A stretch of 64,000 nucleotides of DNA. Source: Minisyncoccota bacterium (GTDB taxonomy: Bacteria; Patescibacteriota; Minisyncoccia; Phycocordibacterales; CSBR16-193). The stretch lies in assembly GCA_040905715.1 (NCBI GenBank), contig JBBDRA010000003.1:71075-135074 (forward strand), written 5' to 3'. Positions 22,022 through 39,961 of the stretch are shown here, in pieces (within the stretch, counting starts at the first letter, position 1; each line of letters opens with the position of its first letter). Under the pieces are notes generated by a model that was given only the letters and a program-made list of their open reading frames with translations, ran no database searches and had not been told where the DNA came from. Position numbers and translations under genes: made by a program.

Positions 22022-23356
22022 ATGTCTTGGAAGATCGCACAAACACTCATTCTTATTGCGATTTTCTCTGTGCCGGTGTTTTCACTCCAGGCAGATCATG
22101 CGATCAATATAAATACAGCGAGTGTGGAGATGCTCCAAGAGCTCACCGGTGTCGGAGAAGTAAAGGCCGGTGACATTGTTGCGTACAGAGATAATAATGG
22201 CCACTTTAGTTCGATCAGCGAGATTGAAGAAGTGAGCGGTATCGGCCCGGCAACCTTCAACGGTATAAAAGACCACATTACGGTAAGCGGTTCTTCCGAT
22301 ACTGATACAGACGACACTGATGACGACGATGATACAGATACCAAGGAGGAGGAAAACACCACGGACGACTCAAAGAGTGAAGAAGACGCAGAGAGAAGTA
22401 GTTCCAGCTCCGGCGGTAGCGATGACTACGAGAGCAAGATGGAGTCACCACTTTCGGTCTCGCTCGATCTCTCACCCTCTGTTGCTGTGGCCGGAGCCCC
22501 GGTAACCTTTATGGTCGATGCACGCATTGAAGAGAGTGAGGCAAACACAACTTCCTTTGATTGGAATCTGGGCGATGGTACCCAGGCACAGGGAAAGGAA
22601 GTGACGCATATCTATGCAGCTCCGGGTACGTACGTTGTGGTGATCAATGCTGAAACACGCACAAAAGAAGCGCGGATCAAAGAGACGATCACGGTCCACG
22701 AAGGAGGTGTATCGATACGTGACGTCTCGCTTTCTCCCGATGGGTCGATCACCCTCACCAACAATGACGTTCAGGAATATCTGCTGACCGGTTGGCATCT
22801 TTCAGCCGGTGGGCAGACATATACGATCCCCGACGATACATTCATAGCCGGAGGCAGCTCGATCACCTTGCCTTCGGTGGTTACCGGCCTGGAGCTTGCC
22901 CGGCCGGATGTCTCACTCTTGTATCCGAACGGCGATCTAGCCGATAAGTATAATACACAGGAGCCAAAACAGGCTGATGCCTCACAGACTAGATTAGAGA
23001 CCAACCCAAGCAATTCAGCGCCTGTTCAGTCGGCAGCTGAGAATGCGGTTGCCGAAGAAGAAGACGGTGAAGCGGGTGATGAAGGAGGCGGGGAAGTACG
23101 AGGCACGACAAGCGTTGCCGCTTCGGTCTCGCTTTCTGATTCATCCGGCAAGCTCTGGCCGTGGCTTGCCGGCTTGCTTGGCGTCGTTGCGCTGGGTATA
23201 CTCGGGTTTATCGTAGCAAAGCCCCAGGAGGGTCTTGAGGAAGGTCTTGTAGCCCAAGAGACAGCAGAAACAGAGATAGCAGCAGGTGATTCCGCTGATG
23301 ATTACGAGATCTTAGAGAGTCTTCCTAACGACGAGAGGCAGAAACGAAACGTATGA
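22022..23356 (+). CDS. ComEA-like helix-hairpin-helix DNA-binding protein fused to an acidic linker, a PKD domain and a lamin-tail (LTD) domain, with a C-terminal membrane anchor
   Basis: It has a signal peptide and a ComEA HhH segment 'INTASVEMLQELTGVGEVKAGDIVAYRDNNGHFSSISEIEEVSGIGPATF'. The PKD domain reads 'NLGDGTQAQGKEVTHIYAAPGTYVV' and the LTD reads 'LLTGWHLSAGGQTYTIP'. A TM helix sits at the C-terminus. Confidence 0.6.
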   Translation: MSWKIAQTLILIAIFSVPVFSLQADHAININTASVEMLQELTGVGEVKAGDIVAYRDNNGHFSSISEIEEVSGIGPATFNGIKDHITVSGSSDTDTDDTDDDDDTDTKEEENTTDDSKSEEDAERSSSSSGGSDDYESKMESPLSVSLDLSPSVAVAGAPVTFMVDARIEESEANTTSFDWNLGDGTQAQGKEVTHIYAAPGTYVVVINAETRTKEARIKETITVHEGGVSIRDVSLSPDGSITLTNNDVQEYLLTGWHLSAGGQTYTIPDDTFIAGGSSITLPSVVTGLELARPDVSLLYPNGDLADKYNTQEPKQADASQTRLETNPSNSAPVQSAAENAVAEEEDGEAGDEGGGEVRGTTSVAASVSLSDSSGKLWPWLAGLLGVVALGILGFIVAKPQEGLEEGLVAQETAETEIAAGDSADDYEILESLPNDERQKRNV

Positions 23357-24537
23357 TCGAATCTCACTTTAAAGTACTTATCGTCGTTACCCGAGGAACA
23401 GTCGGCGGAGCCCAGACCTCTGTGTTCAACCTTGCCCGCCAACTCGCTCGAAGCCCTCAGGCAGACGTGACCGTCGGCTCCGGCGAGGGAGAGCACCTGG
23501 CACTGCGCTGCCGGGCCGCCGGTATTGAGCACGTTCGATTCGAATACTTACGCCGTAGCCTTAATCCGATCTACGCCGTGCGCTCGATCGCCGAGTTTGT
23601 GCGGCACTTTAATCAAGAGCAGTACGATGTTGTACACATCAACAGCTCAAATGCACTTTTTGCCGCCCTCGCCGCAAAACTCTCAAAGAAAAAACCATGG
23701 ATCGTGTTTACATTCCGCGGTCTCTCGCTCCTCGACGAGCACTATGAGATGTCGAGCCTAAAGCGACGACTCTATATCTGGATATACCGGATCCTGCTCG
23801 CGTTCGTTGATGAGCCGGTCTTTGTGAGTTTTGAGAATTTCGAGACCGCCACGCGGATGGGGCTGGTTAAGGAAGGCGCCGGCACCGTGATCTACAACGG
23901 ACTGGACCCTGAGGAGCTTGTCTTTGAAGATCGCTCTGAGGCCCGGCAGGCGCTCGCTGAGTTATCCGGCGCGAAGATAACCGACGAGACGTTTCTTATC
24001 GGATCGATCGGCCGACTGGCGTACCAGAAGAATTATGAGTTTTTGATAGATCAAATTGCTGATCTGTCGGGTAAGCATCCTTTACTCAAAGTTGTTATTA
24101 TTGGCGATGGTCCTTTACATAAAACTATCCTTGGCCATATTCGGAGAGAAGGGCTTGAGCAAATAATATATTTGCCCGGCGAGATCCCTGAAGCTTCTCG
24201 TTATATGAGAGGTCTTGATCTTTTTGTTCTACCAAGCCGGTACGAGGGGCTTTCGGTCACCCTGATAGAGACGCTCTTTGCCGGGGTGTCGGTCCTTGCC
24301 TCGGATGTCGGTGGAGCGCGTGAGCAGTTCGAGCAAGCGCCGTTTCAGGTATATCCTTTGGATAACAGCGAAGAATTTCAGAAGCGTCTCTCGCGCTTGA
24401 TCGAGCACGCGGATGTGCGGGCCGAGCTCGCCGAGGCAAACAAAAACCGCGCAAACGATTTTCACATCAGCAAAACCGCCGCCGGGTACCGGAGCGTGTA
24501 TAATGAAGCACATAATACATCACGGTCGCAATCGTAG
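23353..24537 (+). CDS. Glycosyltransferase family 4 (GT-B, Glycos_transf_1)
   Basis: The C-terminal GT1 motif 'EGLSVTLIETLFAGVSVLASDVGGARE' is present. Its start overlaps the upstream gene's stop (ATGA). Confidence 0.7.
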   Translation: MIESHFKVLIVVTRGTVGGAQTSVFNLARQLARSPQADVTVGSGEGEHLALRCRAAGIEHVRFEYLRRSLNPIYAVRSIAEFVRHFNQEQYDVVHINSSNALFAALAAKLSKKKPWIVFTFRGLSLLDEHYEMSSLKRRLYIWIYRILLAFVDEPVFVSFENFETATRMGLVKEGAGTVIYNGLDPEELVFEDRSEARQALAELSGAKITDETFLIGSIGRLAYQKNYEFLIDQIADLSGKHPLLKVVIIGDGPLHKTILGHIRREGLEQIIYLPGEIPEASRYMRGLDLFVLPSRYEGLSVTLIETLFAGVSVLASDVGGAREQFEQAPFQVYPLDNSEEFQKRLSRLIEHADVRAELAEANKNRANDFHISKTAAGYRSVYNEAHNTSRSQS

Positions 24538-24540
24538 ATT

Positions 24541-25614
24541 ATGAACACAAAACCGAAAGCATTATATATCAGACGGGATCATTCACGTGAGCCGTTAAAA
24601 AAGAGGATCGTTTCAACATGGCGTCATTTTGCGTATTACACCGGTCAGGAAGGGTTTTTTGAAGAAGCGCTTGCGTCCCAGTTTGATGTGACAGAACAGA
24701 CCGCTGAAGCGTTTCTAAAGAGTGGAAAGAATGCTCAAGGGTACGATGCGGTTGTTGTGAATTTTAAGTGCGATCACAAAGCTATTGCGTCAGATCGATA
24801 TGAAGCAATGAGGATTATCGCTGAAGGTGTTTCAGTACCAACAGTGTTGTTTATCGGACTTGACCGCGCCGCGCATATGCCCGTTAACGAGGTTTTGGAT
24901 CAGTATGATGTTGTGGTAAAGCGAGAGCCGTTCATCGACCGCGACAGGTATTCCTTGTCAGAAAGCAATAAGCACAAGATCATCGCGTCTATGCTTTCAT
25001 GTCCGCTGTTACGCCGGGAGAAAACGCCGATCGTAAAACCGATCACATGGCTCACGAACCAGCGTCAAACCGCTCAAGAAAATGAAGCGTATAAGTATGA
25101 CGTGTTCTTTTCGGGGGCGGTCACGCGAGAGAATGATGTACGACCGGATGTATGGCGACGGGTCCTCGAGGAGCCAGACATTAACGCGTACGGCGGACTA
25201 CAGCCGAGCGCCTCACGTGATCGTCTGCCCGATCCTGAACTCGAGTTCGGCAAGCTGACACCCCAGGAGTTCATTGATACGATCCATCGTTCAAAGATAA
25301 ATCTTGCCCTCGACGGGATCGGCGAGTTCACGTACCGGCATAATGAGCTGTGGCACCTGGGTGCGTTTATGATCAGCAGTCCTTCGTTTCGTGATCTGGA
25401 GATACCGCTTCCGGCCAAAGAAGATGTACATTATGTCTCATACAACAACCTCGATGAGTTAATAGAGAAGATCCACTACTATCTCGAGCATGACGCAGAG
25501 CGGAATAAAATTGCTCACGCCGGAAAGGAGATGTTTGATCAATACTACAACCCAAAGAGTCACGGGCGAGATATAAAGCAAGCGGTAGATCAGCTGCGTA
25601 TTAGTGGAGAGTGA
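24541..25614 (+). CDS. CgeB-like glycosyltransferase-domain protein (Glyco_trans_1_2-like C-terminus)
   Basis: The C-terminal 'NNLDELIEKIHYYLEHDAERNKIAHAGKE' resembles the conserved end of the CgeB/DUF3880 family. Confidence 0.4.
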   Translation: MNTKPKALYIRRDHSREPLKKRIVSTWRHFAYYTGQEGFFEEALASQFDVTEQTAEAFLKSGKNAQGYDAVVVNFKCDHKAIASDRYEAMRIIAEGVSVPTVLFIGLDRAAHMPVNEVLDQYDVVVKREPFIDRDRYSLSESNKHKIIASMLSCPLLRREKTPIVKPITWLTNQRQTAQENEAYKYDVFFSGAVTRENDVRPDVWRRVLEEPDINAYGGLQPSASRDRLPDPELEFGKLTPQEFIDTIHRSKINLALDGIGEFTYRHNELWHLGAFMISSPSFRDLEIPLPAKEDVHYVSYNNLDELIEKIHYYLEHDAERNKIAHAGKEMFDQYYNPKSHGRDIKQAVDQLRISGE

Positions 25615-26005
25615 TGATATAGTATCGACTATGGAAACAGGAGCACTCGCCATATCCACAATCATATTTCTAAGTGTTTGTTTGTTCTTATTGGTTAATA
25701 ACAAAAGATTGCGTGATGAACTTCGACGAGTGGAGAAAGAGAAGCAAGAAGAGGAAGAATCATTTGAACGGTCAGGTGGTTTAGAGGAATATCACGCTGA
25801 ACGTCAGCGAGTGAAAGATGAGCGCAAAGATAGCATTCTTGTTCTTTTCGAGGGCAAGAAGAAGATCAAGAACGCTGACGTTGTGAATGTGTTGGATGTA
25901 TCCTCGGCAACAGCGACCCGGTATTTGGATGAGTTGGAGGAAGAAGGACGTATTCAACAGAATGGCACAACCGGAAGAAGCGTGGTATACGTAGCGGTAA
26001 AATAA
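25604..26005 (+). CDS. Small membrane-anchored protein with a coiled-coil and a C-terminal winged-helix (HTH)-like domain
   Basis: It has an N-terminal TM helix and a charged coiled-coil. The C-terminal 'VVNVLDVSSATATRYLDELEEEGRIQQNGTTGRSVVY' looks like a wHTH. The true start may be the ATG at 25631. Confidence 0.35.
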   Translation: MESDDIVSTMETGALAISTIIFLSVCLFLLVNNKRLRDELRRVEKEKQEEEESFERSGGLEEYHAERQRVKDERKDSILVLFEGKKKIKNADVVNVLDVSSATATRYLDELEEEGRIQQNGTTGRSVVYVAVK

Positions 26006-26045
26006 ACAGCTCACATTGCTTGTGAGCCGTTTAGAAAGCCTATAT

Positions 26046-27239
26046 ATGGCGGAAAACCAACAAAAACCAAAGATACTGATCGTTATTAGCAACCTCGAAG
26101 TCGGTGGTGGTGCTCAGCGGGTTGCATCTACAGTCGGGAACGAACTGAGTGATAAGGGCTTTGAGACGCATCTGCTTACGTTCTATGAATATCCGCAGAC
26201 GTATCCGTATTACGGGGTTTATTATAGTAGGCATGAGAAGCCAAAGAAATTCAGTAAACCGATAAAAGCAGTGATGCGGGTTTGGGATATTGCACAGTAT
26301 TGTAAACGACATAATATACAAACGACAGTAGCCTTCCTTGAAGAGGCGAGTTTTTATTCCATACTAACGAAGCTTTTTTTCAACAGAAGTAGAATAATAG
26401 TTTCAGTGAGAAACAATCCTCATTATAGAAACACATTATATAAAGTCTTAATGCGGCTCCTATATCCATTTGCTGACAGAGTGATCTCTGTCACAAGAGG
26501 TATTGAAGAGATCCTAAAAAAAGATTATAAATTAACGAACACAGCGACGATATATAATCCGATTGATAAAGAGATGATAGAAAAAAGAGCAGAAAACCCC
26601 CTTCCGGAAGAATTTCGCTGGGTAGAAAATAGAACACCTTTATTTATATCTATAGGACGTTTGGTCCAACAAAAAGGTCAATGGCATCTCGTACGCGCGT
26701 TTCAAAAAGTTGTGGAAAAAAATAATGATGCAACGCTTGTCCTTGTCGGGGATGGGAAATTGAAAGATAAACTAAAAAAACTCATTGCTGATTGCGGCTT
26801 GAATAATAATGTTTTTTTGTTCGGAAAACAGAGCAACGTTTTTTCTTTTCTTAAAGCAAGTGATGTATTCATATTTAGTTCTCTCTGGGAAGGGATGCCT
26901 AACACGGTACTTGAAGCTCTTGCAGTCAATTTGCCGGTTGTCACAACTGATTGTGCTACTGGTCCGCGTGAGATCATCGCGCCGGAGCTTGGTATTTTTG
27001 AAAATATTACATACCCCTACATGACACAGTATGGTATTTTGACCATGCCGCTTGGTTTTGAACAAATTTGGGAAAGCAGTGAATCATGCGCATTGACGCA
27101 AGAGGAGAAAGTATTTGCTGATGCTATGATACAGATCTTAGAAAAACCGCTCAAAGATCGGCTAACCGGTCTTAAGGCGTTTCAAATGAATTCTGTTATT
27201 GAGCAGTGGTGTAGAGTAGTTAGCGAGAAGGAGGAATAA
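26046..27239 (+). CDS. Glycosyltransferase family 4
   Basis: The N-terminal 'ILIVISNLEVGGGAQRVA' and C-terminal 'EGMPNTVLEALAVNLPVVTTDCATGPREI' are GT4 motifs. The ORF track starts at 26016, but the ATG at 26046 is preferred. Confidence 0.7.
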   Translation: MAENQQKPKILIVISNLEVGGGAQRVASTVGNELSDKGFETHLLTFYEYPQTYPYYGVYYSRHEKPKKFSKPIKAVMRVWDIAQYCKRHNIQTTVAFLEEASFYSILTKLFFNRSRIIVSVRNNPHYRNTLYKVLMRLLYPFADRVISVTRGIEEILKKDYKLTNTATIYNPIDKEMIEKRAENPLPEEFRWVENRTPLFISIGRLVQQKGQWHLVRAFQKVVEKNNDATLVLVGDGKLKDKLKKLIADCGLNNNVFLFGKQSNVFSFLKASDVFIFSSLWEGMPNTVLEALAVNLPVVTTDCATGPREIIAPELGIFENITYPYMTQYGILTMPLGFEQIWESSESCALTQEEKVFADAMIQILEKPLKDRLTGLKAFQMNSVIEQWCRVVSEKEE

Positions 27240-27933
27240 TATCGAGTCGTGGCCGTTCAGTTCTTCGATCGTTTTCTACGGACTGTTCGTCTCGCCGTAA
27301 GGCGATCGTGTTTTTACAGCTATCAATTACATACCAGTGGCCGCCTGCAAGCAGTTCGCCAACAACTCGAGTAACGCCCGAAAAAGAAATGTGATCATCA
27401 AATATGAGACAGCCTCCATCTCTTACGTACGGTGCGAATTTATCTGCATCCTTGCGGCAGGCTTCATATGAGTGATCTGCATCAATAAAGACAAGGTCAA
27501 ATGTACTATTTTCTGGAACAGCAACATGATGACTGTTCCCTTGTATCGTTTTGATTATATCTTTCCAGGGATCAGTTGTTTCCTGGAAGGATTCAAATGT
27601 ATCCTGTTGTCCTTCAGACATTGCATCGTTATTCCAAGTATCAATGCAGTACAAAAACACGGATGTTTCAGGGTTTCTCTTGCTATCTATAAGACCTTGT
27701 GCAATAACCGCAGTTGACGCGCCTCGGTAGGATCCAATTTCAAGTGCAACTCCAAGCTTGTGGTGATTGATCATCATGCGGTACAAAAAAAGCCGCTCTT
27801 CAGTGTTCGTTGTTCCTTTTGCTTTACTTGCACTGCCGACAATTCTCCCAAGTTGTTTTAAGGGAAAAAAAGTTGTTAGGTAGTGATTGTAAAATCTCCG
27901 AATTTTATTTTTTATTTTTTTTATAAATTTCAT
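27220..27933 (-). CDS. Class I SAM-dependent methyltransferase (Methyltransf_24 / O-MTase-like)
   Basis: It carries 'LEIGSYRGASTAVIAQG' and 'FDLVFIDADHSYEA', typical of the Methyltransf_24 / OMT family 3. Confidence 0.55.
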   Translation of the reverse strand: MKFIKKIKNKIRRFYNHYLTTFFPLKQLGRIVGSASKAKGTTNTEERLFLYRMMINHHKLGVALEIGSYRGASTAVIAQGLIDSKRNPETSVFLYCIDTWNNDAMSEGQQDTFESFQETTDPWKDIIKTIQGNSHHVAVPENSTFDLVFIDADHSYEACRKDADKFAPYVRDGGCLIFDDHISFSGVTRVVGELLAGGHWYVIDSCKNTIALRRDEQSVENDRRTERPRLDIIPPSR

Positions 27934-27950
27934 GTTTGTTTTGTAAGGTT

Positions 27951-28826
27951 TTAATCTTTTGTGTGATACCCAAAAAAGGGAGATAGGAAATTATTGATTT
28001 GATCGTTTAAATATTTTATATCATCAGGCTGTAGAGCATCTTTGTAACCGCCCACCTTCCCTTGACGGACTTTATAGCTTTGTTCGTCTTTTGTTTCTCC
28101 TGCGCCAAATCGTCCTTTAATATAAAGTTCACCAGAACGTTCACGTTTTTTCATATTGTCGAATGCTGAAAATGCAATAGCTTGAGTGAGAGCCTCTTCT
28201 TTCAAAGGAAGACCTAATATGTTTATTAGACGGACCATTTCATGATAGGTGTCACTAGACATGTCTTCATAACGAAGCAAGGTAAATGATGCAGGTATTT
28301 TTTGAGCGTTATTCCAGTGGTTAAGAAAGGTAATAAGCTTGCGTATGCCAAACCGATCATCTCGTATGAAATCGCTCAAAGTACCTTCAAATACTTTTTG
28401 ACGATGTGTGCAGTGAAAATAGTAAGAAACCAGTACGTCTCGAGGATCCCGGACAAGCAAAACAACTTTTTTTGTTTCAAAAGCGGTTTTGTCTGCATTT
28501 AACTCTTCAGAAGGTACGTTGATAGGCTGAGCGTACGTGCTTCCATCATGAACAAAAACTATATGTGGTATATCAGAAATTTGGTGACGTAGGTCTGTAA
28601 TGTCTTCTTGGTGGTCGAGCGGTTTACCATGGAGCGCGGCTACGTAGGCGCTGATGATCATTCTGAGCCAACTTCTTCCCGATTTTGGGTAAGATACGAT
28701 CATGACCTCGGCAAATCTGTTGCGATGCATTTCTGGGTATTCTCGAGAAAATGGCCCGCTTCCAAGACCAATGTATTTTGCTGTCCGATACCACTTTTCT
28801 GGATGTAGATATGATCTTATTACCAT
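27951..28826 (-). CDS. Sulfotransferase (PAPS-dependent, Sulfotransfer_1-like)
   Basis: The 5'-PSB motif is 'YPKSGRSWL' and the 3'-PB motif is 'LLVRDPRDVLVSYY'. Confidence 0.7.
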   Translation of the reverse strand: MVIRSYLHPEKWYRTAKYIGLGSGPFSREYPEMHRNRFAEVMIVSYPKSGRSWLRMIISAYVAALHGKPLDHQEDITDLRHQISDIPHIVFVHDGSTYAQPINVPSEELNADKTAFETKKVVLLVRDPRDVLVSYYFHCTHRQKVFEGTLSDFIRDDRFGIRKLITFLNHWNNAQKIPASFTLLRYEDMSSDTYHEMVRLINILGLPLKEEALTQAIAFSAFDNMKKRERSGELYIKGRFGAGETKDEQSYKVRQGKVGGYKDALQPDDIKYLNDQINNFLSPFFGYHTKD

Positions 28827-29554
28827 GTTGTGTATAGTTGAGAAAATACATCTTCCACTTTTGACCTTAGTAGCTCCTCGCTTTCAGAAGGTAAAGCATT
28901 TTTATTGCTACTTCCTCCGTGCCAAGAAGAAAATATATTTGCAAGTCCTGGATCGATAGCTGCAGCATCTTCTTCTGCATTTTCATACCTGATCAGTATG
29001 GGATCCAATTCTTTTTCCTTAAGCAGCAAGTACTCTTCAGCAAGGCCTCTCCAAAGAGTTGAAAATAGAGTTATACCGCCTACTGAATTAACTCCACCAT
29101 AAGGTTCAACTACACTTAAATGACGGTGTGGCTTGGTCCAGCTAACATATGCGTAGAGTGGGTGGCGGATTAGAAAAACAACATCTTGAACATTGTGCCG
29201 ACTAAAGAAATTCATCACCGGCATCATGTTAAATAGGGCGGTTTGACCGTGTTCTTTTACATAGCCAAGGTAGTTGACCAAGTTTTCATCAATCGTTTTG
29301 TCCAAGACAAGTTGAAATCCTGATCGTTTGTAGAAGGTTGCGCAAGATGTTTCGTTAGGGTATTCCTCATATCCGTTGATTACTTGTCGAGCATTATATT
29401 CAGGCAAATTTTGATCTGCTGACATATATTGCCTGGGCACGAAGCTCGTGTCAGGCTTTGAAGAGTGGAATGCCCCATAACCGCTTTTTGGAATAAGGGT
29501 ATTCAGTGCGCTTGACCCAGAGCCTCCTCGTGAGCAAAAAAAGTGATACCTCAT
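28820..29554 (-). CDS. Sulfotransferase-domain protein (Sulfotransfer_3/Stf0-like), tentative
   Basis: It has an N-terminal P-loop-like 'FFCSRGGSGSSAL' and 'VVFLIRHPLYAYVSW' resembling a 3'-PB. Its start overlaps the upstream sulfotransferase stop. Confidence 0.4.
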   Translation of the reverse strand: MRYHFFCSRGGSGSSALNTLIPKSGYGAFHSSKPDTSFVPRQYMSADQNLPEYNARQVINGYEEYPNETSCATFYKRSGFQLVLDKTIDENLVNYLGYVKEHGQTALFNMMPVMNFFSRHNVQDVVFLIRHPLYAYVSWTKPHRHLSVVEPYGGVNSVGGITLFSTLWRGLAEEYLLLKEKELDPILIRYENAEEDAAAIDPGLANIFSSWHGGSSNKNALPSESEELLRSKVEDVFSQLYTTW

Positions 29555-29564
29555 GATGATAGTA

Positions 29565-31805: not shown

Positions 31806-32689
31806 ACGTGTTTCCAGTGAGAGAGGTCTCTGTTGGTCAGACGCTCGAGTTTCTCGATGTCTGTATAAAAGTATTCTACCAGTTCTTGTTTGAACGTGTC
31901 TGAGAGAGGCTTCGCTCCGCCGATGAGTTTCTGGACGAACGGAAGGTTCCGTAGGCTGCGGCGGATGCCGAGTGCTTTCTTAAGTCGGCCAGCCAATTTT
32001 ATAAGCCGGCGAGCAAGAGGTGAGCGAGTTGCTTTCCTGCGGTGAATAACCGGGAAGTCGTTTCTGCCGTCGTCCTCAACACCGAGAAACGAGAGGGTTT
32101 TTTGGTAGACGGCTTTCGGGTCTTTCTTGAGGTCGTCGTAGAAGATAACAAGTACTCGGTCTTCTCCTGCTTGCTTAAATACACGTTCGAGCTGCTCGCC
32201 GGTCCGGCAGATCTCGCCGTAGCGAAGTTCACCGTTGTTGGTATCACCGGGTTGGCGCGGCTTTTTGGTGTCTATTTGCTTATGTTTTTCCCACGCTTCT
32301 TCCGGAGCATGTGCTTGCTCAGATCCTTCATAGACACGTTGCCAGTAGAGAGACTCGAACATCTCTATCGGATTGCGGAGCATTACGATAAACCGGGTGT
32401 CGGGATTATGTTCAAGAATGTTTGGAATAGCTTCCGGGGTCCGTAGAAGTCGTGTCGGTGCTCCGCCGAGAGCCGTGTGCCCGGCGGCGCCGGCGAATGC
32501 CTGAGCAAGATATTCCTCGCGTGTGCGGTATTTGTCTCGGGCGCGAGAATAGGCGGTGTAGTACTCAGCCTCTTTTGGTTCCGATACGAATATATCCGGA
32601 TGATCGCGTAGGTACTCGGAAAGCGCGGTGGTGCCGCATTTTGGCGCGCCGAGAATAAAGAAGGTGGGCTGTGGTGTGTTCGTGAACAT
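31802..32689 (-). CDS. Sulfotransferase (PAPS-dependent)
   Basis: The 5'-PSB is 'ILGAPKCGTTALSEYL' and the 3'-PB is 'IVMLRNPIEMFESLY'. The coding sequence is GC-rich relative to neighbours. Confidence 0.7.
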   Translation of the reverse strand: MFTNTPQPTFFILGAPKCGTTALSEYLRDHPDIFVSEPKEAEYYTAYSRARDKYRTREEYLAQAFAGAAGHTALGGAPTRLLRTPEAIPNILEHNPDTRFIVMLRNPIEMFESLYWQRVYEGSEQAHAPEEAWEKHKQIDTKKPRQPGDTNNGELRYGEICRTGEQLERVFKQAGEDRVLVIFYDDLKKDPKAVYQKTLSFLGVEDDGRNDFPVIHRRKATRSPLARRLIKLAGRLKKALGIRRSLRNLPFVQKLIGGAKPLSDTFKQELVEYFYTDIEKLERLTNRDLSHWKHV

Positions 32690-32692: not shown

Positions 32693-33418
32693 TTATACAC
32701 GCTTGAGCTTCTGTTTGAGCGATCGCTTCCATCGGCGAAAGTAACCGATCAGGACGCGTTTGTTTTGGAACACTTTTTTGAGAAAGAGCCGCGCTCTGTT
32801 TTCAAGACGGTCCAGTTGTGTATTCCGATCTACTTTTTGAGCGTATACGGTTGAGCTGGCGATACGCGGCTTTTTGAAGTGAGGAGACCGATATACGGTT
32901 TCGTCGACAAGGCGAGAGACGCCTTCCCAAGTAAGAGCGTCGTGAAAGGCAACAATGCCGCCGACGGCAACTTTGGGAAACCACAACTCAAGATCCTCTT
33001 TGGCAGATTCGTAGGAATGATCGCCGTCGATAAAAAGCAGTCCGATCGTTTGGTTGTAGGTGCCGGCGAAGGTCTCGGCGGCTTCGGCCGAGGTCGATAC
33101 GATCGGTGTTACACTCTGAGCAACACCGTGCTTTTCCAGATTATTTTTAAATTCATCAAACGTCCATACCTGGCCGAACAGTTGTTGGTGTTCCTTGGAT
33201 CCGGTGTGTGGATCGATCGCGTACACCCGCGCGCTGTTTCCCTCGGTTGACCCCGAAGCCAGACAGAGTGTCGAGCGTCCCTTCCAGGAGCCGATCTCGA
33301 CAATAGCCATATCACTTGGGCACGCTTGAGCAAGTGTATAGAGAACCGCTCCTTCTTTGTCGGTTAGCCAGCCGTCAATAGACCGCATCGACCGGAGTGT
33401 TGTAGCAAGATTAATCAT
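32693..33418 (-). CDS. Class I SAM-dependent methyltransferase (Methyltransf_24-like)
   Basis: It carries 'IVEIGSWKGRSTLCLASG' and 'LLFIDGDHSYE'. Confidence 0.55.
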   Translation of the reverse strand: MINLATTLRSMRSIDGWLTDKEGAVLYTLAQACPSDMAIVEIGSWKGRSTLCLASGSTEGNSARVYAIDPHTGSKEHQQLFGQVWTFDEFKNNLEKHGVAQSVTPIVSTSAEAAETFAGTYNQTIGLLFIDGDHSYESAKEDLELWFPKVAVGGIVAFHDALTWEGVSRLVDETVYRSPHFKKPRIASSTVYAQKVDRNTQLDRLENRARLFLKKVFQNKRVLIGYFRRWKRSLKQKLKRV

Positions 33419-33473: not shown

Positions 33474-34745
33474 ATGCAAGCAGTGTATAATTTTTCTATG
33501 GTTAGAGCAAAAGAACGATTGAAGCATTTATTGCGCTGGAGCGAGCAATATACGAAAACCGATATGATCTACGCGGCTCGGGGCGGGTTTTGGTTAACCG
33601 TGGGTAAAATCGTTCTCTCCGCCACCTCGTTTGCTACGATGGTGGTGTTTGCCAATCTGCTTCCGGCTGAAATATACGGTAACTATCAGTTCGTGCTTGC
33701 TACGGTAAGCGTACTGACCATTTTTTCACTGCCGGGTATTAAGAACGCCCTGGTGCGTAGTGTGGCTCGGGGAGATGAAGGATCATTCCTCACGGCGTTC
33801 TGGGTGAGAATGAAATGGTCAGTGCTTACAAGTATTGCGTTGGGTTGTGTCGGGCTTTGGTATTTTTGGAATGAGGATGTTCTTCTTCTCGCGGCTTTTC
33901 TCGTCGCAGCCTTTTTGTTCCCACTGCGAATGGCTGAACCAACGACTGAGCAGTTTTGGCAAGGGAGAAAACAGTTCAATATACAGATAGCGACACATTT
34001 GATCGTGACCTTTGCTTCAGCGGTGGCCGTTATGGCGACACTGTGGGTAACCGATAATCTTGTCTACATCCTTCTGGCTTTCTTTGGAGTTCAGGCGGTA
34101 TTCGGGATTGGTGTGTATCTATTTACGATGTCTCGGTTGCGCAACCACCGCGTTGATAAAGATATGGTCTCTTACGGCAAGTCGTTGACGGTCATGAGTG
34201 TCATAGGGACAGCTGCAGACCATTTAGATAAAATACTCCTGTTTGCGTTTCTCCCCCCGGCCCATCTCGCGGTGTATTCTTTTGCGATCGATCCGGTAAA
34301 AAAGGTGAAGGGATTTTTCTCGATCAAAGAGCTTGCTCTCCCTAAACTCAGTCAGCACGGAGTTGCCGGTGAGGCTCGAAAGAAAAAAGTGTTTTATAAG
34401 ACGCTTCGATTGTTCGCGGTATCAGTGCCGGCGGCGTTTTTGCTTGCGGTAAGCGCGCCGTATATCTATGAGTTCATATTTCCTCAGTACGTTGAGTCAG
34501 TTGTATATTTTCAGGCATTGACCGTTCTTGTTGCATTCACGCCATTTGCCATCTTTGGCGCGTCACTTCTGGCGGAGATGAAAACAACCTCACAATACAT
34601 ACTTCAGATCACGGTGCCTTCGCTTAAGATACTTTTCTTTTTTGTCCTTATACCGCTGTGGGGCATCTGGGGGGTCGTCTTTGCTATTGTTGTAGCTGAA
34701 ATAGTGCGAGGAGTGTTAGTGACGTTCTTGTACTGGCGGATGTGA
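33474..34745 (+). CDS. Oligosaccharide/polysaccharide flippase (Wzx, MOP superfamily)
   Basis: It has 12 predicted TM helices and a Polysacc_synt-like N-terminus ('AARGGFWLTVGKIVLSATSFATMVVFANLL'). The start may be the ATG at 33498. Confidence 0.65.
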   Translation: MQAVYNFSMVRAKERLKHLLRWSEQYTKTDMIYAARGGFWLTVGKIVLSATSFATMVVFANLLPAEIYGNYQFVLATVSVLTIFSLPGIKNALVRSVARGDEGSFLTAFWVRMKWSVLTSIALGCVGLWYFWNEDVLLLAAFLVAAFLFPLRMAEPTTEQFWQGRKQFNIQIATHLIVTFASAVAVMATLWVTDNLVYILLAFFGVQAVFGIGVYLFTMSRLRNHRVDKDMVSYGKSLTVMSVIGTAADHLDKILLFAFLPPAHLAVYSFAIDPVKKVKGFFSIKELALPKLSQHGVAGEARKKKVFYKTLRLFAVSVPAAFLLAVSAPYIYEFIFPQYVESVVYFQALTVLVAFTPFAIFGASLLAEMKTTSQYILQITVPSLKILFFFVLIPLWGIWGVVFAIVVAEIVRGVLVTFLYWRM

Positions 34746-34799: not shown

Positions 34800-37052
34800 G
34801 TGCGATATATGAAAGACGTGAATGACATTATTCGGTATGCGGTCATCGGACTGGTAATGCTGGTGCCGGCCGTGGCGCTTATTGTTGCCAACGATCTGTT
34901 CTTTCCGTACATCACCGGAAAGAACATTATGTTTCGGGTGTTGGTAAGTCTGGCACTTGCCGGCTGGCTCTTGCTCGCTGCTGCGGATCCACGGTATCGA
35001 CCGCATCGCTCACCGATGCTGTATGCGCTTTTACTATTTGTGCTGGTTGTGGGGCTGGCTGATCTATTCGGTATAAGTCCCGCCCAAAGCTTGTGGTCGA
35101 ACTTTGAGCGAATGGAGGGCTTCGTTACGATACTTCACCTGCTCGCGTTCTTTGTCGTAGCAAGTTCTGTTCTGACAACCGAGCGATTGTGGAGCTGGTT
35201 TTTTCACATATCTATTGGCATCTCGGTCATTGTCGGACTGCATGCTCTAGGAGGTGATTCGGTACGAGCAAGTAACCTGCTCGGAAACTCGATCTACGTG
35301 GCGATCTACATGCTCTTCCATGCTTTCCTGGCGTGCTTGTTCTTGGTGCGGACGTGGGGGAAGCATATCGGATACACGATCAGCTACGGCGCGATCATTG
35401 CGTTTTTGATATTGATCATGATGCTGACCGATACGCGAGGTACCATGCTCGGACTTCTCGTGGGCTTTGGTGTAATGGCGCTTATAGTTGCTGTTCTTGG
35501 GAGGGGATATCCGGCACTTCGTAAGATCGCTCTTGGGGTGGTTGCACTCGGTTTGATCACTGCGATCGGATTTGCTTCGGTTCTGACTATAAACAATGCG
35601 TATCCTGACGTTGCTGAGGAGAATAGTTTTGTGCAAGCAGTAAATGATGTGCCGGTGATCGGTACGCTCGCGTCGATCAATCTTACCGGGGTCAATAGCG
35701 GTACAACCCGTCTCTACATTTGGGGAATCGCTCTGCAGGGTCTGGAAGAGCGTCCGGTGCTTGGTTGGGGGCAGGAGAACTTTGGTGTGGTGTTCGATAA
35801 AAACTATGACCCGATCCTCGCTACTCGTGAGCAGTGGTTCGATCGCGCTCACAATACGTTCGTCGACTGGCTTTCGGCGGCCGGTATTCTTGGTCTGCTC
35901 ACGTATGTCTCACTGTACGGGGTATTACTCTGGCTTATCTGGAGAGACCCGAGTGAGAACTGGCCGTTTCTCGAGAAGGTGGTGTTGACCGGTATGGTCG
36001 TGGCGTATGCGGTACATAATCTATTCGTGTTCGACAGTATCACGAGCTATATTCTGTTCTTTGTGGTGATGGCGTATGTCGCTCGACAGACTGCTTCGGA
36101 TGATCGGCGCGTGCTTGCCGCTTTGCCGGCGGTAAATATGCCGGTGTACAGTGTTGTTGCATCACTCGCGCTGGTGGGGGTCATCGCTTCGATCTATATG
36201 ACGGCATACCGGCCGTATGTAGCGAGCAATGAGCTTTTAACCGGACTTCGTAATGTGGCAATGGATCAATACGAAAGTGGACTTCCGCATTTTGAGAACG
36301 CTCTGGCGTACGCAGAAAGAGGAATTGGTTCTCAGGAGATACGCGAACAGATCGCTCAGACAGCAGCGGATCTAATAAATCAGGACGTAGACCCGTCGAT
36401 CACCCAAGGGTATGTTGAGTTAGGAGATTCGGAACTTGAAAAACACGCCGAGAGTTTTCCTCACGATACGAGGCCGTATGTTGTGTGGGGGCAAATGCTG
36501 ACAGAGGCCGGTCAGTTTGAGTTGGCGGAAGAGAGGCTGCTTTCGGGACTGGAAACATCGCCACACAAACAGATGATCATGTTTCAGTTAATGAGCATTC
36601 ATGTTGAGCAAGGACAGTACGAGGAAGCGGTAGAGTGGAGCAAGCGGGCATTCGAGTTGAATCCGGATTATGATCAGGCGCGTATTCGCTACGCGATCGC
36701 GTTGCGATATGCCGGGGAAATGGAGCAGGCAGAAGAAGTGCTTGAGCCGCTCGGAGAATCCGCTCTTTTTAGTGATCAGCTTCTGGGGCCGTACCTGGCA
36801 AGAGGCGAGTATGAAGAGCTTATAGCGGTACGCCGACAGCGTGTTGAGATACTCAATGAACGCCTAGAAGCAAGTGAGGATCCCTCAGTTCTTGAACAGG
36901 TCGCGCAGGAGCGAGTGTTGATCGCTGTGACCTATTACGAGATGGGGGACTCAGAGCGAGCGATCCAAGAGTTTGAAAGTATAAAGGCGGACTACCCGAA
37001 CTTTGCCTCGCAGATCGACTCGTACATCGAACGAATTCAGGAGGAACGGTAA
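34800..37052 (+). CDS. O-antigen ligase/polymerase-like (Wzy_C) polytopic membrane protein fused to C-terminal TPR repeats
   Basis: The multi-TM N-terminal 420 aa contain a 'WFDRAHNTFVDWLSAAGILGLL' Wzy_C-like motif. The C-terminal ~300 aa are TPR-like ('AVEWSKRAFELNPDYDQARIRYAIALRYAGE'). Confidence 0.5.
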   Translation: MRYMKDVNDIIRYAVIGLVMLVPAVALIVANDLFFPYITGKNIMFRVLVSLALAGWLLLAAADPRYRPHRSPMLYALLLFVLVVGLADLFGISPAQSLWSNFERMEGFVTILHLLAFFVVASSVLTTERLWSWFFHISIGISVIVGLHALGGDSVRASNLLGNSIYVAIYMLFHAFLACLFLVRTWGKHIGYTISYGAIIAFLILIMMLTDTRGTMLGLLVGFGVMALIVAVLGRGYPALRKIALGVVALGLITAIGFASVLTINNAYPDVAEENSFVQAVNDVPVIGTLASINLTGVNSGTTRLYIWGIALQGLEERPVLGWGQENFGVVFDKNYDPILATREQWFDRAHNTFVDWLSAAGILGLLTYVSLYGVLLWLIWRDPSENWPFLEKVVLTGMVVAYAVHNLFVFDSITSYILFFVVMAYVARQTASDDRRVLAALPAVNMPVYSVVASLALVGVIASIYMTAYRPYVASNELLTGLRNVAMDQYESGLPHFENALAYAERGIGSQEIREQIAQTAADLINQDVDPSITQGYVELGDSELEKHAESFPHDTRPYVVWGQMLTEAGQFELAEERLLSGLETSPHKQMIMFQLMSIHVEQGQYEEAVEWSKRAFELNPDYDQARIRYAIALRYAGEMEQAEEVLEPLGESALFSDQLLGPYLARGEYEELIAVRRQRVEILNERLEASEDPSVLEQVAQERVLIAVTYYEMGDSERAIQEFESIKADYPNFASQIDSYIERIQEER

Positions 37053-37063: not shown

Positions 37064-38128
37064 GTGTCGGGTATGAATATCGAAGAACAGAAACCACTTG
37101 CTCCGTTAACCACGTTCGGTGTTGGTGGACCCGCTACGTATTATGCGCGGGTGACCACGGTCGACGAGTTAGAGGAGGCGCTTGCACACGCGCGGGAGAA
37201 TCAGCTCCCGGTTTTTATTCTCGGGGGAGGCTCCAACGTGGTCATTGACGATGCGGGGCTCGACGGTCTTGTGATTCATTGCGCACTCACCCGAGTGGGT
37301 TATGAGGAGAAAGAAGAAGGGCAGGTGGAGGTGGTTGCCGGGGCCGGCGAGCGTTGGGACGAGCTGGTTGCAGACACAGTGAATCGCGGGTTATGGGGGC
37401 TCGAAAATCTCTCCGGCATCCCCGGCAGTGTCGGGGCGGCACCGGTTCAGAATATCGGCGCGTACGGGGTGGAGATACAGGATGTGCTGGAGTGGGTCGA
37501 GGCGGTGGATATCGAGACCGGCGAGAAGAAGGTGTTCTCGCCCCAGGAGTGCGAGTTTGCGTATCGCTGGAGTTACTTTAAATCAAACGAAGGCCGGCGC
37601 TGGGTCATTGCCCGGGTGGCGTTTCGGCTTGCTGTTGAGACAAATCCAAAACTTTCATACAAAGACCTTCAGGAGTATTTTACGGACATGTCTGTGCAAC
37701 CGTCGCTGGCTGAGATACGCGAGGCGGTATTGACGATACGGGCAAAGAAGTTTCCCGACCTCACTGAGCTCGGAACCGCCGGCAGTTTTTTTACTAACCC
37801 GATCATCTCACGCCAGGAGCTTCCCCGCCTCCTCGAGAAGTACCCGGAGCTTCCGCACTATGAGGTTGATGATCAGGATGTAGACGACAAGGATGGAAAA
37901 CAGCGGGTGAAGGTGTCGGCCGCCTGGATACTCGACAAAGCGTGCGGACTCAAGGGGTATCATCGTGGTCCGGTCCGGTTGTTTGAGCGCCAGCCGTTGG
38001 TTGTGGTGGCTGAGCGAGGGGCAACAGCTGCGGATATTCATGCGTTGGCAGATGATGTGCAAAAGCAGGTCCAAAAGGCAACAGGTATTACACTTGCTCG
38101 CGAGGTGCGCTATCTGCCGGAAGAATGA
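37064..38128 (+). CDS. murB: UDP-N-acetylenolpyruvoylglucosamine reductase MurB
   Basis: It has an FAD-binding N-terminus 'LAPLTTFGVGGPATYY…ILGGGSNVVIDD', a MurB C-terminal domain, and an acidic insertion (DDQDVDDKDG). Confidence 0.8.
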   Translation: MSGMNIEEQKPLAPLTTFGVGGPATYYARVTTVDELEEALAHARENQLPVFILGGGSNVVIDDAGLDGLVIHCALTRVGYEEKEEGQVEVVAGAGERWDELVADTVNRGLWGLENLSGIPGSVGAAPVQNIGAYGVEIQDVLEWVEAVDIETGEKKVFSPQECEFAYRWSYFKSNEGRRWVIARVAFRLAVETNPKLSYKDLQEYFTDMSVQPSLAEIREAVLTIRAKKFPDLTELGTAGSFFTNPIISRQELPRLLEKYPELPHYEVDDQDVDDKDGKQRVKVSAAWILDKACGLKGYHRGPVRLFERQPLVVVAERGATAADIHALADDVQKQVQKATGITLAREVRYLPEE

Positions 38129-38185
38129 TACGAAAGAATAATAGCAAAATGAGGATAGTAGTTTTTCTTTGGTATACTCTAAGGC

Positions 38186-39961
38186 ATGTCTAAAAGCTCT
38201 TCAAGAAATACGAAAAGAAACACGAAAGCTACCGCCGGCCGAACGTATCCTGCTCACGGCGGGGACCTGAAAGATCTTTTGTATGCCGGAGACAGTGACG
38301 ATCTTCGTGAGCGCATTGCGGGTGCCGTGCGCATCATATTGACTCCGCGTCAGCTGTGTGACCTGGAGCTGCTTTTGGTGGGTGGATTTTCTCCGTTGGA
38401 AGGGTTTATGGATGAGGTGACATATCGCAGTGTCGTGGATACGATGCGTCTTCCTGGTGGTGCAGTGTGGCCGATGCCGATCGTGCTTGATCAAGATCGG
38501 GTACATGTGGCTGAGGGCGATGAGGTTGTACTGTGTGACAGCTACAACAAACCGCTTGCGCTATTGCAGGTGACATCTATCTACAAGCCGGACAAGACAG
38601 CCGAAGCCGAGGGTGTGTACGGGACAACGGACAAGTCGCATTTCGGTGTGCGGTATCTATTTGAGAAAACTGGTTCAACTTACATTGGTGGTCCGGTCAC
38701 CGGTATTAGTTTGCCGGAGTATTTTGATTTTACCGAGTACCGTCTCACCCCGCGGCAGTTGCGTGACCGGTTCAGTGAGCGAGGTGTCTCGCGCGTGGTT
38801 GGATTTCAGACACGCAATCCGCTTCACCGTGCCCATCATGACCTGATCCGTCGGGCTGCTCGCGATCACGGTGCGCTGGCGCTCGTTCATCCGTCGGTCG
38901 GAGTCACCAAGGACGGGGATATTGATCACGTGACCCGGGTCAAGGCGTATAAAGTGCTCCACGAAAATTATCTCTCAGACATTGCCGAGCTTTCTTTGCT
39001 TCCGTTGGCGATGCGAATGGGCGGTCCGCGTGAGGCACTGTGGCATGCGATCATCCGAAAGAATTACGGATGCACGCATTTTATTATCGGTCGTGATCAC
39101 GCGGGTCCGGGAAAGAACGAGGCGGGCGAACCGTTTTATGGGGATTACGATGCTCACGAGCTCGTTGCTCAATACGCAGATGAACTGGGTATAGAAGTAG
39201 TGCCGATGAAGAAGGTTGTGTATGTTGAGGAAAAAGATGAGTTCATACCTGAAGATGAAGTTTCACCGAATCAATCAATAAAAGAACTATCGGGTACGGA
39301 GGTGCGCCGCCGGCTTCTCGAGAACGAAGATATTCCGGAATGGTTCTCGTTTCCCGAGGTTGTTTCGATTCTTCGTAAAAGTACTCGTAAAAATAATCAG
39401 GAGAACGGACAGGTGGGCACGACCCGTGGTGCCGTTATCTTCTTCACCGGTCTTTCCGGTTCCGGCAAAACAACAGTAGCCCGAACGCTTGCGGCATATA
39501 TCCTTGAGCGGTATAACCGCGAGGTGACATTGCTCGATGGGGATGTGGTTCGAGAGAATCTTTCAAAAGGACTAACCTTTTCAAAAGAGGATCGAGACAC
39601 CAATGTTGAGCGGATCGGTTTTGTTGCCGGCGAGGTTGCCAAGCACGGAGGTCTCGCGATCTGCTCTGCCATCGCACCATATATAGCGGCTCGAGAAGCA
39701 AATCGGCGCCGAGTGAGCGCAAACGGTGAGTATATTGAGGTGTATGTCTCGACGCCGCTGGAAACCTGCGAAGCACGCGATGTGAAAGGGTTGTACGCCG
39801 GAGCACGGGCAGGGAACATAAAAAATTTCACCGGCATTTCTGATCCGTACGAGGAGCCGACCGATCCCGAGATCAAACTTGATACGAGCGCGCAAACACC
39901 ACAGGAATGTGTTGCCACTATTGTTGCGTATCTTGAATCTCGTGCACTTCTTACTGAATAA
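38186..39961 (+). CDS. Bifunctional sulfate adenylyltransferase (ATP sulfurylase) / adenylyl-sulfate kinase (PAPS synthase)
   Basis: The ATP-sulfurylase motifs are 'GFQTRNPLHRAHHDL' and 'GRDHAG'. The C-terminal APS kinase has a P-loop 'FTGLSGSGKTTVA' and 'CSAIAPY'. Confidence 0.85.
   Translation: MSKSSSRNTKRNTKATAGRTYPAHGGDLKDLLYAGDSDDLRERIAGAVRIILTPRQLCDLELLLVGGFSPLEGFMDEVTYRSVVDTMRLPGGAVWPMPIVLDQDRVHVAEGDEVVLCDSYNKPLALLQVTSIYKPDKTAEAEGVYGTTDKSHFGVRYLFEKTGSTYIGGPVTGISLPEYFDFTEYRLTPRQLRDRFSERGVSRVVGFQTRNPLHRAHHDLIRRAARDHGALALVHPSVGVTKDGDIDHVTRVKAYKVLHENYLSDIAELSLLPLAMRMGGPREALWHAIIRKNYGCTHFIIGRDHAGPGKNEAGEPFYGDYDAHELVAQYADELGIEVVPMKKVVYVEEKDEFIPEDEVSPNQSIKELSGTEVRRRLLENEDIPEWFSFPEVVSILRKSTRKNNQENGQVGTTRGAVIFFTGLSGSGKTTVARTLAAYILERYNREVTLLDGDVVRENLSKGLTFSKEDRDTNVERIGFVAGEVAKHGGLAICSAIAPYIAAREANRRRVSANGEYIEVYVSTPLETCEARDVKGLYAGARAGNIKNFTGISDPYEEPTDPEIKLDTSAQTPQECVATIVAYLESRALLTE

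Follow-up and report, generated by a model that had tools for sequence, protein, structure and literature searches.

We analysed a 64,000-nucleotide stretch of DNA (the window) from contig JBBDRA010000003.1 of a Minisyncoccota bacterium, an ultra-small organism of Candidatus Paceibacterota, and found at positions 23353–39961 a locus that, judged from its gene families and motifs, probably builds an oligosaccharide linked to undecaprenyl phosphate (Und-P) and makes of it a methylated and sulfated surface glycan. The locus consists of 17 back-to-back open reading frames (ORFs), of which eight form a block on the minus strand, with a plus-strand block on either side (Table 1). Families were assigned to the translated ORFs by Pfam gathering scores and NCBIfam cut-offs, and the Pfam scan covered the ORFs of the locus and, elsewhere in the window, those of at least 150 aa; besides these assignments we relied on motifs, the fold of one protein, synteny and composition. 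All the genes that an initial annotation of this DNA had listed are present as intact ORFs, and every listed ORF except 28820–29554 passes the Pfam gathering score for its stated family, which holds for the assembly set (two GT4 glycosyltransferases, the CgeB-like Glyco_trans_1_2 enzyme, GT-D, Wzx and Wzy_C-TPR) and for the four S-adenosylmethionine (SAM) methyltransferases. That list was incomplete in two places, as it left out MurB and a 133-aa winged-helix-like ORF.

Two genes of the minus-strand block, ST1 and ST2, encode what are by family score and motifs canonical sulfotransferases that use 3′-phosphoadenosine 5′-phosphosulfate (PAPS). The Pfam cut-offs are 22 bits for Sulfotransfer_1 and 27 bits for Sulfotransfer_3, and as motifs we looked for a P-K-x-G-(T/S)-(T/S) loop with the catalytic lysine together with a 3′-phosphate-binding R-x-P...S. 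The translation of ST1 contains SYPKSGRSWL and VLLVRDPRDVLVSYY, with PKSGRS as the lysine-bearing 5′-phosphosulfate loop and RDPRDVLVS as the 3′-phosphate motif; that of ST2 contains GAPKCGTTAL and IVMLRNPIEMFESLY, with PKCGTT (again with its lysine) and RNPIEMFES in the corresponding roles. The best relatives of ST1 in the PDB are the cytosolic SULT2B1 and the glycopeptide sulfotransferases Teg12/14 and StaL, and the best relative of ST2 is the bacterial sulfotransferase 3rnl (E 2.9e-26), while heparan-sulfate 3-O-sulfotransferases match ST2 weakly. ST1 is 79% identical to its counterpart in locus L016 and 44% to that in L014, and orthologues of ST2 occur at 74–75% identity in two Paceibacterota metagenome-assembled genomes (MAGs) and at 44% in locus L007.

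The PAPS for these enzymes would come, from sulfate and ATP, from the bifunctional ATP sulfurylase/APS kinase (Sat/CysC) at the end of the locus. This protein scores 778.6 bits with NF004040 against a cut-off of 669, and the domain models TIGR00339 and TIGR00455 are also above their cut-offs. An ATP sulfurylase is expected to carry QxRNP/HxxH and GRD motifs, and an adenosine 5′-phosphosulfate (APS) kinase a P-loop GxxGxGK(S/T) and DGD. Sat/CysC has QTRNPLHRAH and GRDHAG in the sulfurylase part and GLSGSGKTT and LDGDVVR in the kinase part. Because it passes the full-length model and carries the motifs of both domains, both half-reactions that make PAPS look intact. Profile searches therefore bear out the sulfotransferase and PAPS-synthase assignments of the initial annotation, with a reservation for one protein.

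This protein is the product of 28820–29554 (hereafter X), which had been counted as a third PAPS sulfotransferase, with weaker motifs. ST1 and ST2 stand by their scores and motifs, and X has no profile match: searches of Pfam, NCBIfam and the PDB (phmmer) gave nothing, and neither a profile of 47 sequences run against the PDB nor hhalign comparisons with ST1 and ST2 gave anything significant. Among the 47 relatives three give weak Sulfotransfer_3 matches, of which the best has an E-value of 4.6e-4. The predicted structure, a high-confidence model, has a sulfotransferase fold, and X is called sulfotransferase-like because fold comparison alone resolved its identity after sequence searches had failed. 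On the strength of this model X is a sulfotransferase-fold protein of a small family without annotation. A word-indexed search found four relatives, and an exhaustive profile search of 1.84 billion proteins found 170 representative clusters. A Walker-A kinase was rejected as an identity for X, whose loop has no lysine and which sulfotransferases match with higher scores and over more residues than kinases do.

The alignment of the 47 sequences shows what the family conserves. Residues G10, G11, G13, R130 and P132 are invariant, S138, H131, H145 and E191 are nearly so, and [RK]33-P-D is conserved. The 3′-phosphate motif R130-x-P132-x5-S138 is kept (S138 in 45 of the 47) and is in register with RDPRDVLVS of ST1. 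The P-loop of X is GGSGS and the invariant pattern of the family is GG[S]G[ST][TS], in which the lysine or arginine found in the 5′-phosphosulfate-binding (5′-PSB) loop is missing; R9 of X is conserved in only 5 of the 47, that is, among close relatives. As canonical comparators we took Pfam Sulfotransfer_1/3, the olefin-synthase sulfotransferase domain 4gox, TPST1/2 and 3rnl. Compared with canonical PAPS sulfotransferases, the X family has conserved [RK]-P-D, K..R-H and R-[YF]-E motifs of its own, and neither Pfam nor PDB profiles match X significantly in sequence. The public annotation of X is 201 aa long and cuts off the P-loop; the 244-aa form is backed by homologues, among them a Logan copy of 244 aa that falls into the same 90% cluster.

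Transcription of the minus-strand block runs through Methyltransf_24/TylF, ST2, GT-D, Methyltransf_24, Methyltransf_31/25/11/12, X, ST1 and Methyltransf_24. The tailoring set is dense, with three sulfotransferase-fold proteins and four methyltransferases per four glycosyltransferases. The 237-aa Methyltransf_24 protein is 85% identical to its counterpart in L016 and 50% to the cyanobacterial one in L014, and the Methyltransf_31/25/11/12 protein (MT31) is 81% and 50% identical, respectively; UbiG and ChlM-type models match the latter weakly. As listed, the 281-aa Methyltransf_24 ORF shares 59 nt with GT-D, and therefore its real start may be further downstream.

From these parts we infer a glycan as substrate, O-linked methyl and sulfate groups, the sequence of steps, the exclusive use of Sat/CysC for sulfation and the acceptor, and we propose the following pathway. 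A priming phosphoglycosyl transferase would start the chain, and the two GT4 enzymes, Glyco_trans_1_2 and GT-D would elongate it on the cytoplasmic face of the membrane. Still in the cytoplasm, the four SAM methyltransferases would O-methylate the glycan (three are of the Methyltransf_24/TylF/caffeoyl-CoA O-methyltransferase type), and ST1 and ST2 would O-sulfate it from PAPS, perhaps with the participation of X. Wzx would then flip the tailored unit over the membrane, and Wzy_C-TPR would polymerise it or hand it to a final acceptor, so that the product would be an anionic and partly hydrophobic surface glycan or glycoconjugate. The priming transferase, four glycosyltransferases and Wzx flippase of Wzx/Wzy-type assembly are all present in the window, and Wzx is 45–47% identical to the Wzx genes that adjoin ST2 in loci L007, L018 and L020. 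The sole candidate for priming in the window is the Bac_transf protein, which together with an epimerase had been placed upstream of the locus at 0.8–3.1 kb. Both genes are real, and 21 kb separate them from the locus (with SecDF, the 16S rRNA gene, pyruvate kinase, MurD, MurC and others in between); the Bac_transf protein is a candidate for the priming enzyme of this pathway.

Table 1. Genes of the locus at 23353–39961, with two upstream genes and SecA
Feature	Position	Strand	Evidence and remarks
Bac_transf polyprenyl-phosphate glycosyl-1-phosphate transferase	742–2121	+	Pfam 180 bits; TIGR03025 299.1 bits (cut-off 295.55); five hydrophobic segments
NAD-dependent sugar-nucleotide epimerase/dehydratase	2171–3079	+	Pfam Epimerase 223.5 bits; GalE model 174 bits, below cut-off
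GT4 glycosyltransferase (GT4a)	23353–24537	+	Glycos_transf_1 90.6 bits, Glyco_transf_4 72.5; native GC 0.53
Glyco_trans_1_2 (CgeB-like) glycosyltransferase	24541–25614	+	Pfam 49.2 bits; 59% identical to L016 copy
Winged-helix-like ORF, 133 aa	25604–26005	+	Sub-threshold HTH matches only; GC 0.43
GT4 glycosyltransferase of low-GC island (GT4b)	26016–27239	+	116.4 bits; 79% identical to L016; GC 0.40
Methyltransf_24 O-methyltransferase-type protein, 237 aa, last gene of cassette	27220–27933	-	Pfam 70 bits; Methyltransf_3 24.2 bits (cut-off 22)
ST1, PAPS-type sulfotransferase	27951–28826	-	Sulfotransfer_1 95.5 bits
X, sulfotransferase-fold protein of family without annotation	28820–29554	-	Fold only; GGSGS loop replacing PKxGT(T/S)
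Class I SAM methyltransferase (MT31), first gene of cassette	29565–30173	-	Methyltransf_31/25/11/12; GC 0.36
Methyltransf_24 methyltransferase, 281 aa, low GC	30269–31114	-	Pfam 49.3 bits; Methyltransf_3 27.5 bits (cut-off 22); GC 0.40
GT-D (DUF1792) glycosyltransferase, paired with ST2	31056–31805	-	Pfam GT-D 51.9 bits; TIGR03728 63.9 bits, below cut-off
ST2, PAPS-type sulfotransferase, native composition	31802–32689	-	Sulfotransfer_1 58.1 bits, Sulfotransfer_3 56.3 bits
Methyltransf_24/TylF-type O-methyltransferase, 241 aa, native composition	32693–33418	-	Pfam 98.7 bits; TylF 30.7 bits (cut-off 23); 83% identical to L020
Wzx-type flippase, divergent from tailoring operon	33474–34745	+	Polysacc_synt 61.4 bits; ~10 hydrophobic segments
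Wzy_C polytopic membrane protein with C-terminal TPR (Wzy_C-TPR)	34800–37052	+	Wzy_C 64.5 bits, TPR_19 47.7 bits
MurB (UDP-N-acetylenolpyruvoylglucosamine reductase)	37064–38128	+	NF000755 345 bits (cut-off 277)
Bifunctional ATP sulfurylase/APS kinase (Sat/CysC)	38186–39961	+	PUA_2, ATP-sulfurylase 275.6 bits, APS_kinase 192.6 bits
SecA	40032–42626	+	Plus-strand block after Sat/CysC

Proteins identical to those encoded here are on record from MAGs of Candidatus Paceibacterota, and part of this locus is shared with relatives. The nearest species representative is the Paceibacterota isolate LejiaA_56_15, whose Sat/CysC is 77% identical, and whose ST2 orthologue and Wzy-TPR–MurB–Sat/CysC lie on one 50-kb contig, ST2 being ~19 kb from Sat/CysC. 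The interval between them contains GT4 genes, two Wzx and two Wzy_C genes, and beyond ST2 follow three methyltransferases and a second sulfotransferase; with at least two sulfotransferases, at least three methyltransferases and ~9 glycosyltransferases, it is a larger locus of the same kind. This weakens the statement of the initial annotation that a bacterium with a reduced genome would not usually have such a locus. The backbone of Wzy-TPR, MurB, Sat/CysC and SecA recurs in locus L006. In L007 the order is ST2-like, Wzx, Wzy-TPR, MurB, (transposase), SecA, NUDIX, VTT, Sat/CysC and DsbB, and in a Zambryskibacteria genome it is ABC, Sat/CysC, Wzy_C, SecA ... VTT ... DsbB. The ST2–GT-D pair stands beside Wzx in three Paceibacterota genomes, and GT-D directly follows ST2 in L018 and L020 (58–62% identical). 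Thus the native core, made up of MT24/TylF, ST2, GT-D, Wzx, Wzy-TPR, MurB, Sat/CysC and SecA, is inherited within the Paceibacterota lineage; MurB is a backbone gene and not a tailoring gene. Further away, the Woesebacteria genome GCA_020429045.1 (L012 9186–13728) has a row of a CysQ-like Inositol_P phosphatase, Sat/CysC, Sulfotransfer_3 and a methyltransferase, embedded in a NeuB/GT2/MurJ/PMT_2 glycan locus. Sulfotransferases, O-methyltransferase-type genes and Sat/CysC are therefore linked in related Paceibacterota and in one Woesebacteria genome, which is the outcome of the synteny comparison that the initial annotation had asked for. As a side observation, the PAPS cycle of the Woesebacteria row is more complete than that of the window, where tblastn with the Woesebacteria protein found no CysQ-like phosphatase for 3′-phosphoadenosine 5′-phosphate (PAP) and there is only a MYG1/DHH-family gene at 52346–53242.

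Another part of the locus differs in composition. Per-gene values for 25604–31114, from the winged-helix-like ORF to the 281-aa methyltransferase, are GC 0.36–0.43 and GC at third codon positions (GC3) 0.28–0.41. The native layer, with GT4a, ST2, the TylF-type methyltransferase, Wzx, Wzy-TPR, MurB, Sat/CysC and the rest of the window, has GC of ~0.50 and GC3 0.50–0.62, and GT-D (0.45) and Glyco_trans_1_2 (0.49) are intermediate in GC. The low-GC block holds a four-gene cassette, MT31-X-ST1-MT24, which is found in the same order in L016, a contig of the Candidate Phyla Radiation (CPR) from a JGI metagenome, at 69–85% protein identity, and in the Xenococcaceae cyanobacterium GCA_029979685.1 (L014 4884–12182) at 44–50% identity. 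L016 also has GT4b (79%), the winged-helix ORF at the same position (60%; HTH_24 is recorded there) and Glyco_trans_1_2 (59%), and this small ORF, the first gene of the low-GC island, is possibly a regulator. The neighbours in L016 are far more diverged than the cassette (Wzx 35%, Wzy-TPR 48.5%), and therefore the cassette appears to have been exchanged laterally. Around the low-GC island no insertion sequences, flanking repeats, mobile-element genes or tRNA integration sites were found. We therefore read the locus as a trait of the lineage into which one part was brought recently; since relatives conserve its core, it is more than a peculiarity of a single genome. The assemblies L001 and L002, which are independent and come from the same population (99.8–100% nucleotide identity), both start at 34809, in the first bases of Wzy-TPR, and in a sibling MAG a fragment of 1.6 kb carries ST2; these breaks would fit strain-variable glycan cassettes upstream of Wzy-TPR.

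The imported MT-X-ST1-MT cassette could also tailor a non-glycan small molecule or lipid (a phenolic, a lipid or a peptide) and have nothing to do with the glycan genes around it. The nearest solved relatives of ST1, namely cytosolic SULTs, Teg12/14 and StaL, would agree with such a role, as would the generic character of MT31 with its weak UbiG and ChlM-type matches. However, the cassette lies among glycosyltransferases and glycan exporters in all three contexts found, beside Wzx in L016 and in the window and with Wzm/Wzt, GT4 and GT2 in the cyanobacterium, and no polyketide synthase, nonribosomal peptide synthetase or lipid-synthesis genes are adjacent, which makes this explanation highly improbable. 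The cyanobacterial copy (GC 0.27) immediately follows a Wzm/Wzt-type ABC exporter and is itself followed by further methyltransferase and glycosyltransferase genes; the same tailoring module hence serves an ABC-dependent pathway in the cyanobacterium and a Wzx/Wzy pathway in CPR genomes.

Several points weigh against reading the locus as the source of a methylated and sulfated surface glycan. It is a prediction from the genes of an uncultured MAG; the priming enzyme is distant (21 kb); no chain-length regulator (polysaccharide co-polymerase, PCP) or LCP-type ligase is among the Pfam assignments of the scanned window ORFs; and the solved proteins closest to ST1 use small molecules and glycopeptides, not polysaccharides. 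In X, the position of the catalytic lysine of the 5′-PSB loop is occupied by the invariant G11, and X may be inactive or do something else. The genes cysH, sir, cysK and CysQ and a sulfate importer were sought in the 64-kb window only, and none is there. Finally, Sat/CysC sits in a conserved housekeeping backbone with MurB between it and the glycan genes, its slot in this backbone shifts among relatives (MurB-Sat-SecA, VTT-Sat-DsbB, ABC-Sat-Wzy), and the Levybacteria homologue (L010) has no sulfotransferase within 10 kb.

This position of Sat/CysC, its native composition (GC 0.52) and its homologues of 52–57% identity in the free-living Dyella and Thiohalorhabdus would suit a housekeeping enzyme that activates sulfate for sulfur assimilation (from PAPS through sulfite and sulfide to cysteine), which stands beside the glycan locus by virtue of the Wzy-MurB-SecA backbone and from whose general PAPS pool the sulfotransferases draw. 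We consider this clearly unlikely. No cysH, sir or cysJI was found within 10 kb of Sat/CysC in six CPR loci, nor in the 64-kb window. Moreover, a sulfotransferase is on the same contig within ~20 kb of Sat/CysC in 4 of 6 lineages, namely in the window (5.5 kb from ST2), L007, LejiaA_56_15 and Woesebacteria L012, where the gene is directly flanked by the CysQ-like gene and a sulfotransferase; Zambryskibacteria L008, like the Levybacteria locus, showed none within 10 kb. CPR bacteria are also generally described as having minimal biosynthetic capacity, also in two sources (PMC8672522; bioRxiv 10.1101/2025.01.22.634366). Sat/CysC may serve sulfation only. Nevertheless it is not part of the tailoring cassette and belongs to the Wzy-MurB-SecA-VTT-DsbB backbone, and because its composition is native, the backbone conserved and the Levybacteria copy free of a nearby sulfotransferase, its adjacency to the glycan locus is partly inherited synteny. 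Earlier claims about this gene have to be narrowed accordingly: the linkage of Sat/CysC with sulfotransferases is seen in relatives as well but is in part a matter of backbone, and the locus does have the bifunctional PAPS synthase at its end, but MurB intervenes and the backbone continues into SecA.

The last step of the proposed methylated and sulfated glycan pathway can be read in two ways. The Wzy_C (PF04932) family includes ligases and O-oligosaccharyltransferases besides polymerases, and Wzy_C-TPR may be any of these, since membership in the family does not separate them. Its hydrophobic segments are confined to residues 1–467, and a search of the PDB returned TPR matches only. Instead of being polymerised, a short sulfated and methylated oligosaccharide might be moved en bloc by a PglL/WaaL-like Wzy_C-TPR to pilins, surface-layer proteins, lipid or the cell wall, with the TPR part reading the acceptor. 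Consistent with such a transfer, Wzy_C-TPR is a conserved backbone gene, kept beside MurB/SecA in L006 (54%), L007 (42%) and L008 (35%), while the upstream glycosyltransferases vary; LejiaA_56_15 has a second, TPR-less Wzy_C, a possible polymerase, and the window has one Wzy_C protein; and a chain-length regulator is missing among the scanned window ORFs. The GT-D family is best known from the glycosylation of serine-rich adhesins, which points the same way, with a weak TIGR03728 match in the present protein. Yet there is neither an acceptor protein nor a sequon to point to, a TPR domain is a generic feature, and sequence does not tell a polymerase from a ligase, and we regard en-bloc transfer as rather unlikely. 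A comparable architecture occurs at 56586–59081, where an 831-aa protein with 11 hydrophobic segments and a C-terminal TPR (Wzy-TPR-like, its membrane part without a Pfam match) lies directly upstream of MurJ (59164–60852).

The combination of genes seen here has precedents. In rhizobial NodPQ/NodH, sulfate-activation genes accompany a sulfotransferase and thereby supply PAPS for a glycoconjugate, and the fucose of NGR234 Nod factors is both 2-O-methylated (NoeI) and sulfated (NoeE). The present locus would follow the same logic with the same pairing of sulfate and methyl. It is not a member of that system and would work alike: NodPQ are of the CysD/CysN-CysC type, the rhizobial acceptor is a lipo-chitooligosaccharide made by NodABC, of which no gene is at the locus, and in sequence the two are connected only through the P-loop, where ST2 matches NoeE with 16.5 bits (cut-off 500). 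The capsule cluster of Vibrio sp. KMM 8419, whose sulfated polysaccharide has been chemically proven, contains sulfotransferases and a second copy of cysDNC, and the authors of that study regard PAPS genes that accompany sulfotransferases in a polysaccharide cluster as a hallmark of the synthesis of sulfated polysaccharides (PMC11641403). The prediction of a sulfated glycan from PAPS genes placed by sulfotransferases in a glycan cluster, made for this locus from the start, matches that verified case, which shares the polysaccharide cluster with PAPS-synthesis genes and several sulfotransferases. The differences are that the Vibrio cluster activates sulfate by second copies of cysD/cysN/cysC where the present locus has a fused Sat/CysC, that it uses ABC/Kps-type export with no methyltransferase set described, and that its host is a free-living proteobacterium with normal sulfur assimilation.

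The xss cluster of Synechocystis sp. PCC 6803 is of the Wzx/Wzy type, has two sulfotransferases and makes sulfated synechan, and there the number of sulfotransferases matched the sulfate stoichiometry (PMC8205485). Like the present locus, whose Wzy_C-TPR may be the polymerase and whose winged-helix-like ORF may be a regulator, xss combines Wzx/Wzy-type assembly with a pair of sulfotransferases from different subfamilies, numerous glycosyltransferases and a regulatory gene, and the only non-CPR relative found of the imported cassette is likewise from a cyanobacterium. In contrast, no PAPS-synthesis genes or methyltransferases are listed for xss in PMC8205485, whereas the present locus has both, and xss exports across the outer membrane through PCP and outer-membrane polysaccharide export (OPX) proteins, neither of which was seen in the window. 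What sets the locus apart from the known systems is its fused Sat/CysC, its unusually dense tailoring, the X family and its CPR host. Full-text literature searches found no paper that links CPR, Patescibacteria, Parcubacteria or Saccharibacteria to sulfotransferases, sulfation or sulfate activation. The design principle is hence already known from other bacteria and not yet described in this group.

As the known principle is unchanged, the value of the locus lies in the lineage and the parts list. One more lineage, beyond cyanobacteria and marine proteobacteria, joins the short list of those predicted to make sulfated glycans, and the locus suggests a reason why a PAPS synthase, costly in ATP, is retained by organisms with so little biosynthesis. 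Hardly anything is known of the surface chemistry of CPR/Patescibacteria, though their cells are thought to live on hosts, and the predicted anionic methylated glycan is a concrete and testable target; a role in attachment to a host or as an episymbiont is speculation. For enzymology the locus offers two items, the X family (~170 representative clusters) and the compact MT-X-ST-MT cassette. More broadly, we tentatively suggest, as an idea with somewhat more doubt than confidence behind it, that a Paceibacterota clade has inherited the trait of sulfated and O-methylated surface glycans, which would recur in Sat/CysC-bearing CPR, that Sat/CysC would there serve sulfation only and sulfate would not be assimilated, that cassettes would be swapped with distant phyla such as cyanobacteria, and that X would be a new class of glycan sulfotransferase or a PAPS-handling partner of ST1 without the P-loop lysine.

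Several other features of the window were recorded. Promoter and terminator scans gave no usable signal at the locus, where promoter-like sites were rarer than in shuffled sequence. Upstream, a VirD4/TraG-like coupling ATPase (20093–22003) is followed by a ComEA-like protein with HHH_3, PKD and lamin-tail domains (22022–23356), whose stop codon overlaps the start codon of the first GT4 gene; therefore the glycan genes may be co-transcribed with a pair related to DNA uptake or to a type IV secretion system. Cell-wall genes are scattered about the locus without a compact dcw cluster (FtsW 90–758, MurD 14856–16223, MurC 17295–18698, and MurB and MurJ as given above), and the Wzy-TPR–MurB adjacency is kept in relatives. 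The 16S rRNA gene (7091–8553) is a solitary one: the window contains no 23S gene. It is followed within ~1–2 kb by a GH108 lysozyme/PG_binding_3 ORF (9435–10040) and then by tRNA-Ile (10722–10797). At 45927–46610, within an AI-2E-family transporter gene (45623–46756), L001 has ~100 nt where the window has 683 nt, a difference due either to a deletion in that variant or to a gap in the assembly. The RNase P RNA (55928–56403) scores 100.5 bits against a gathering score of 100 and measures 476 nt against a model of 367 positions, and this excess in length suggests lineage-specific insertions.

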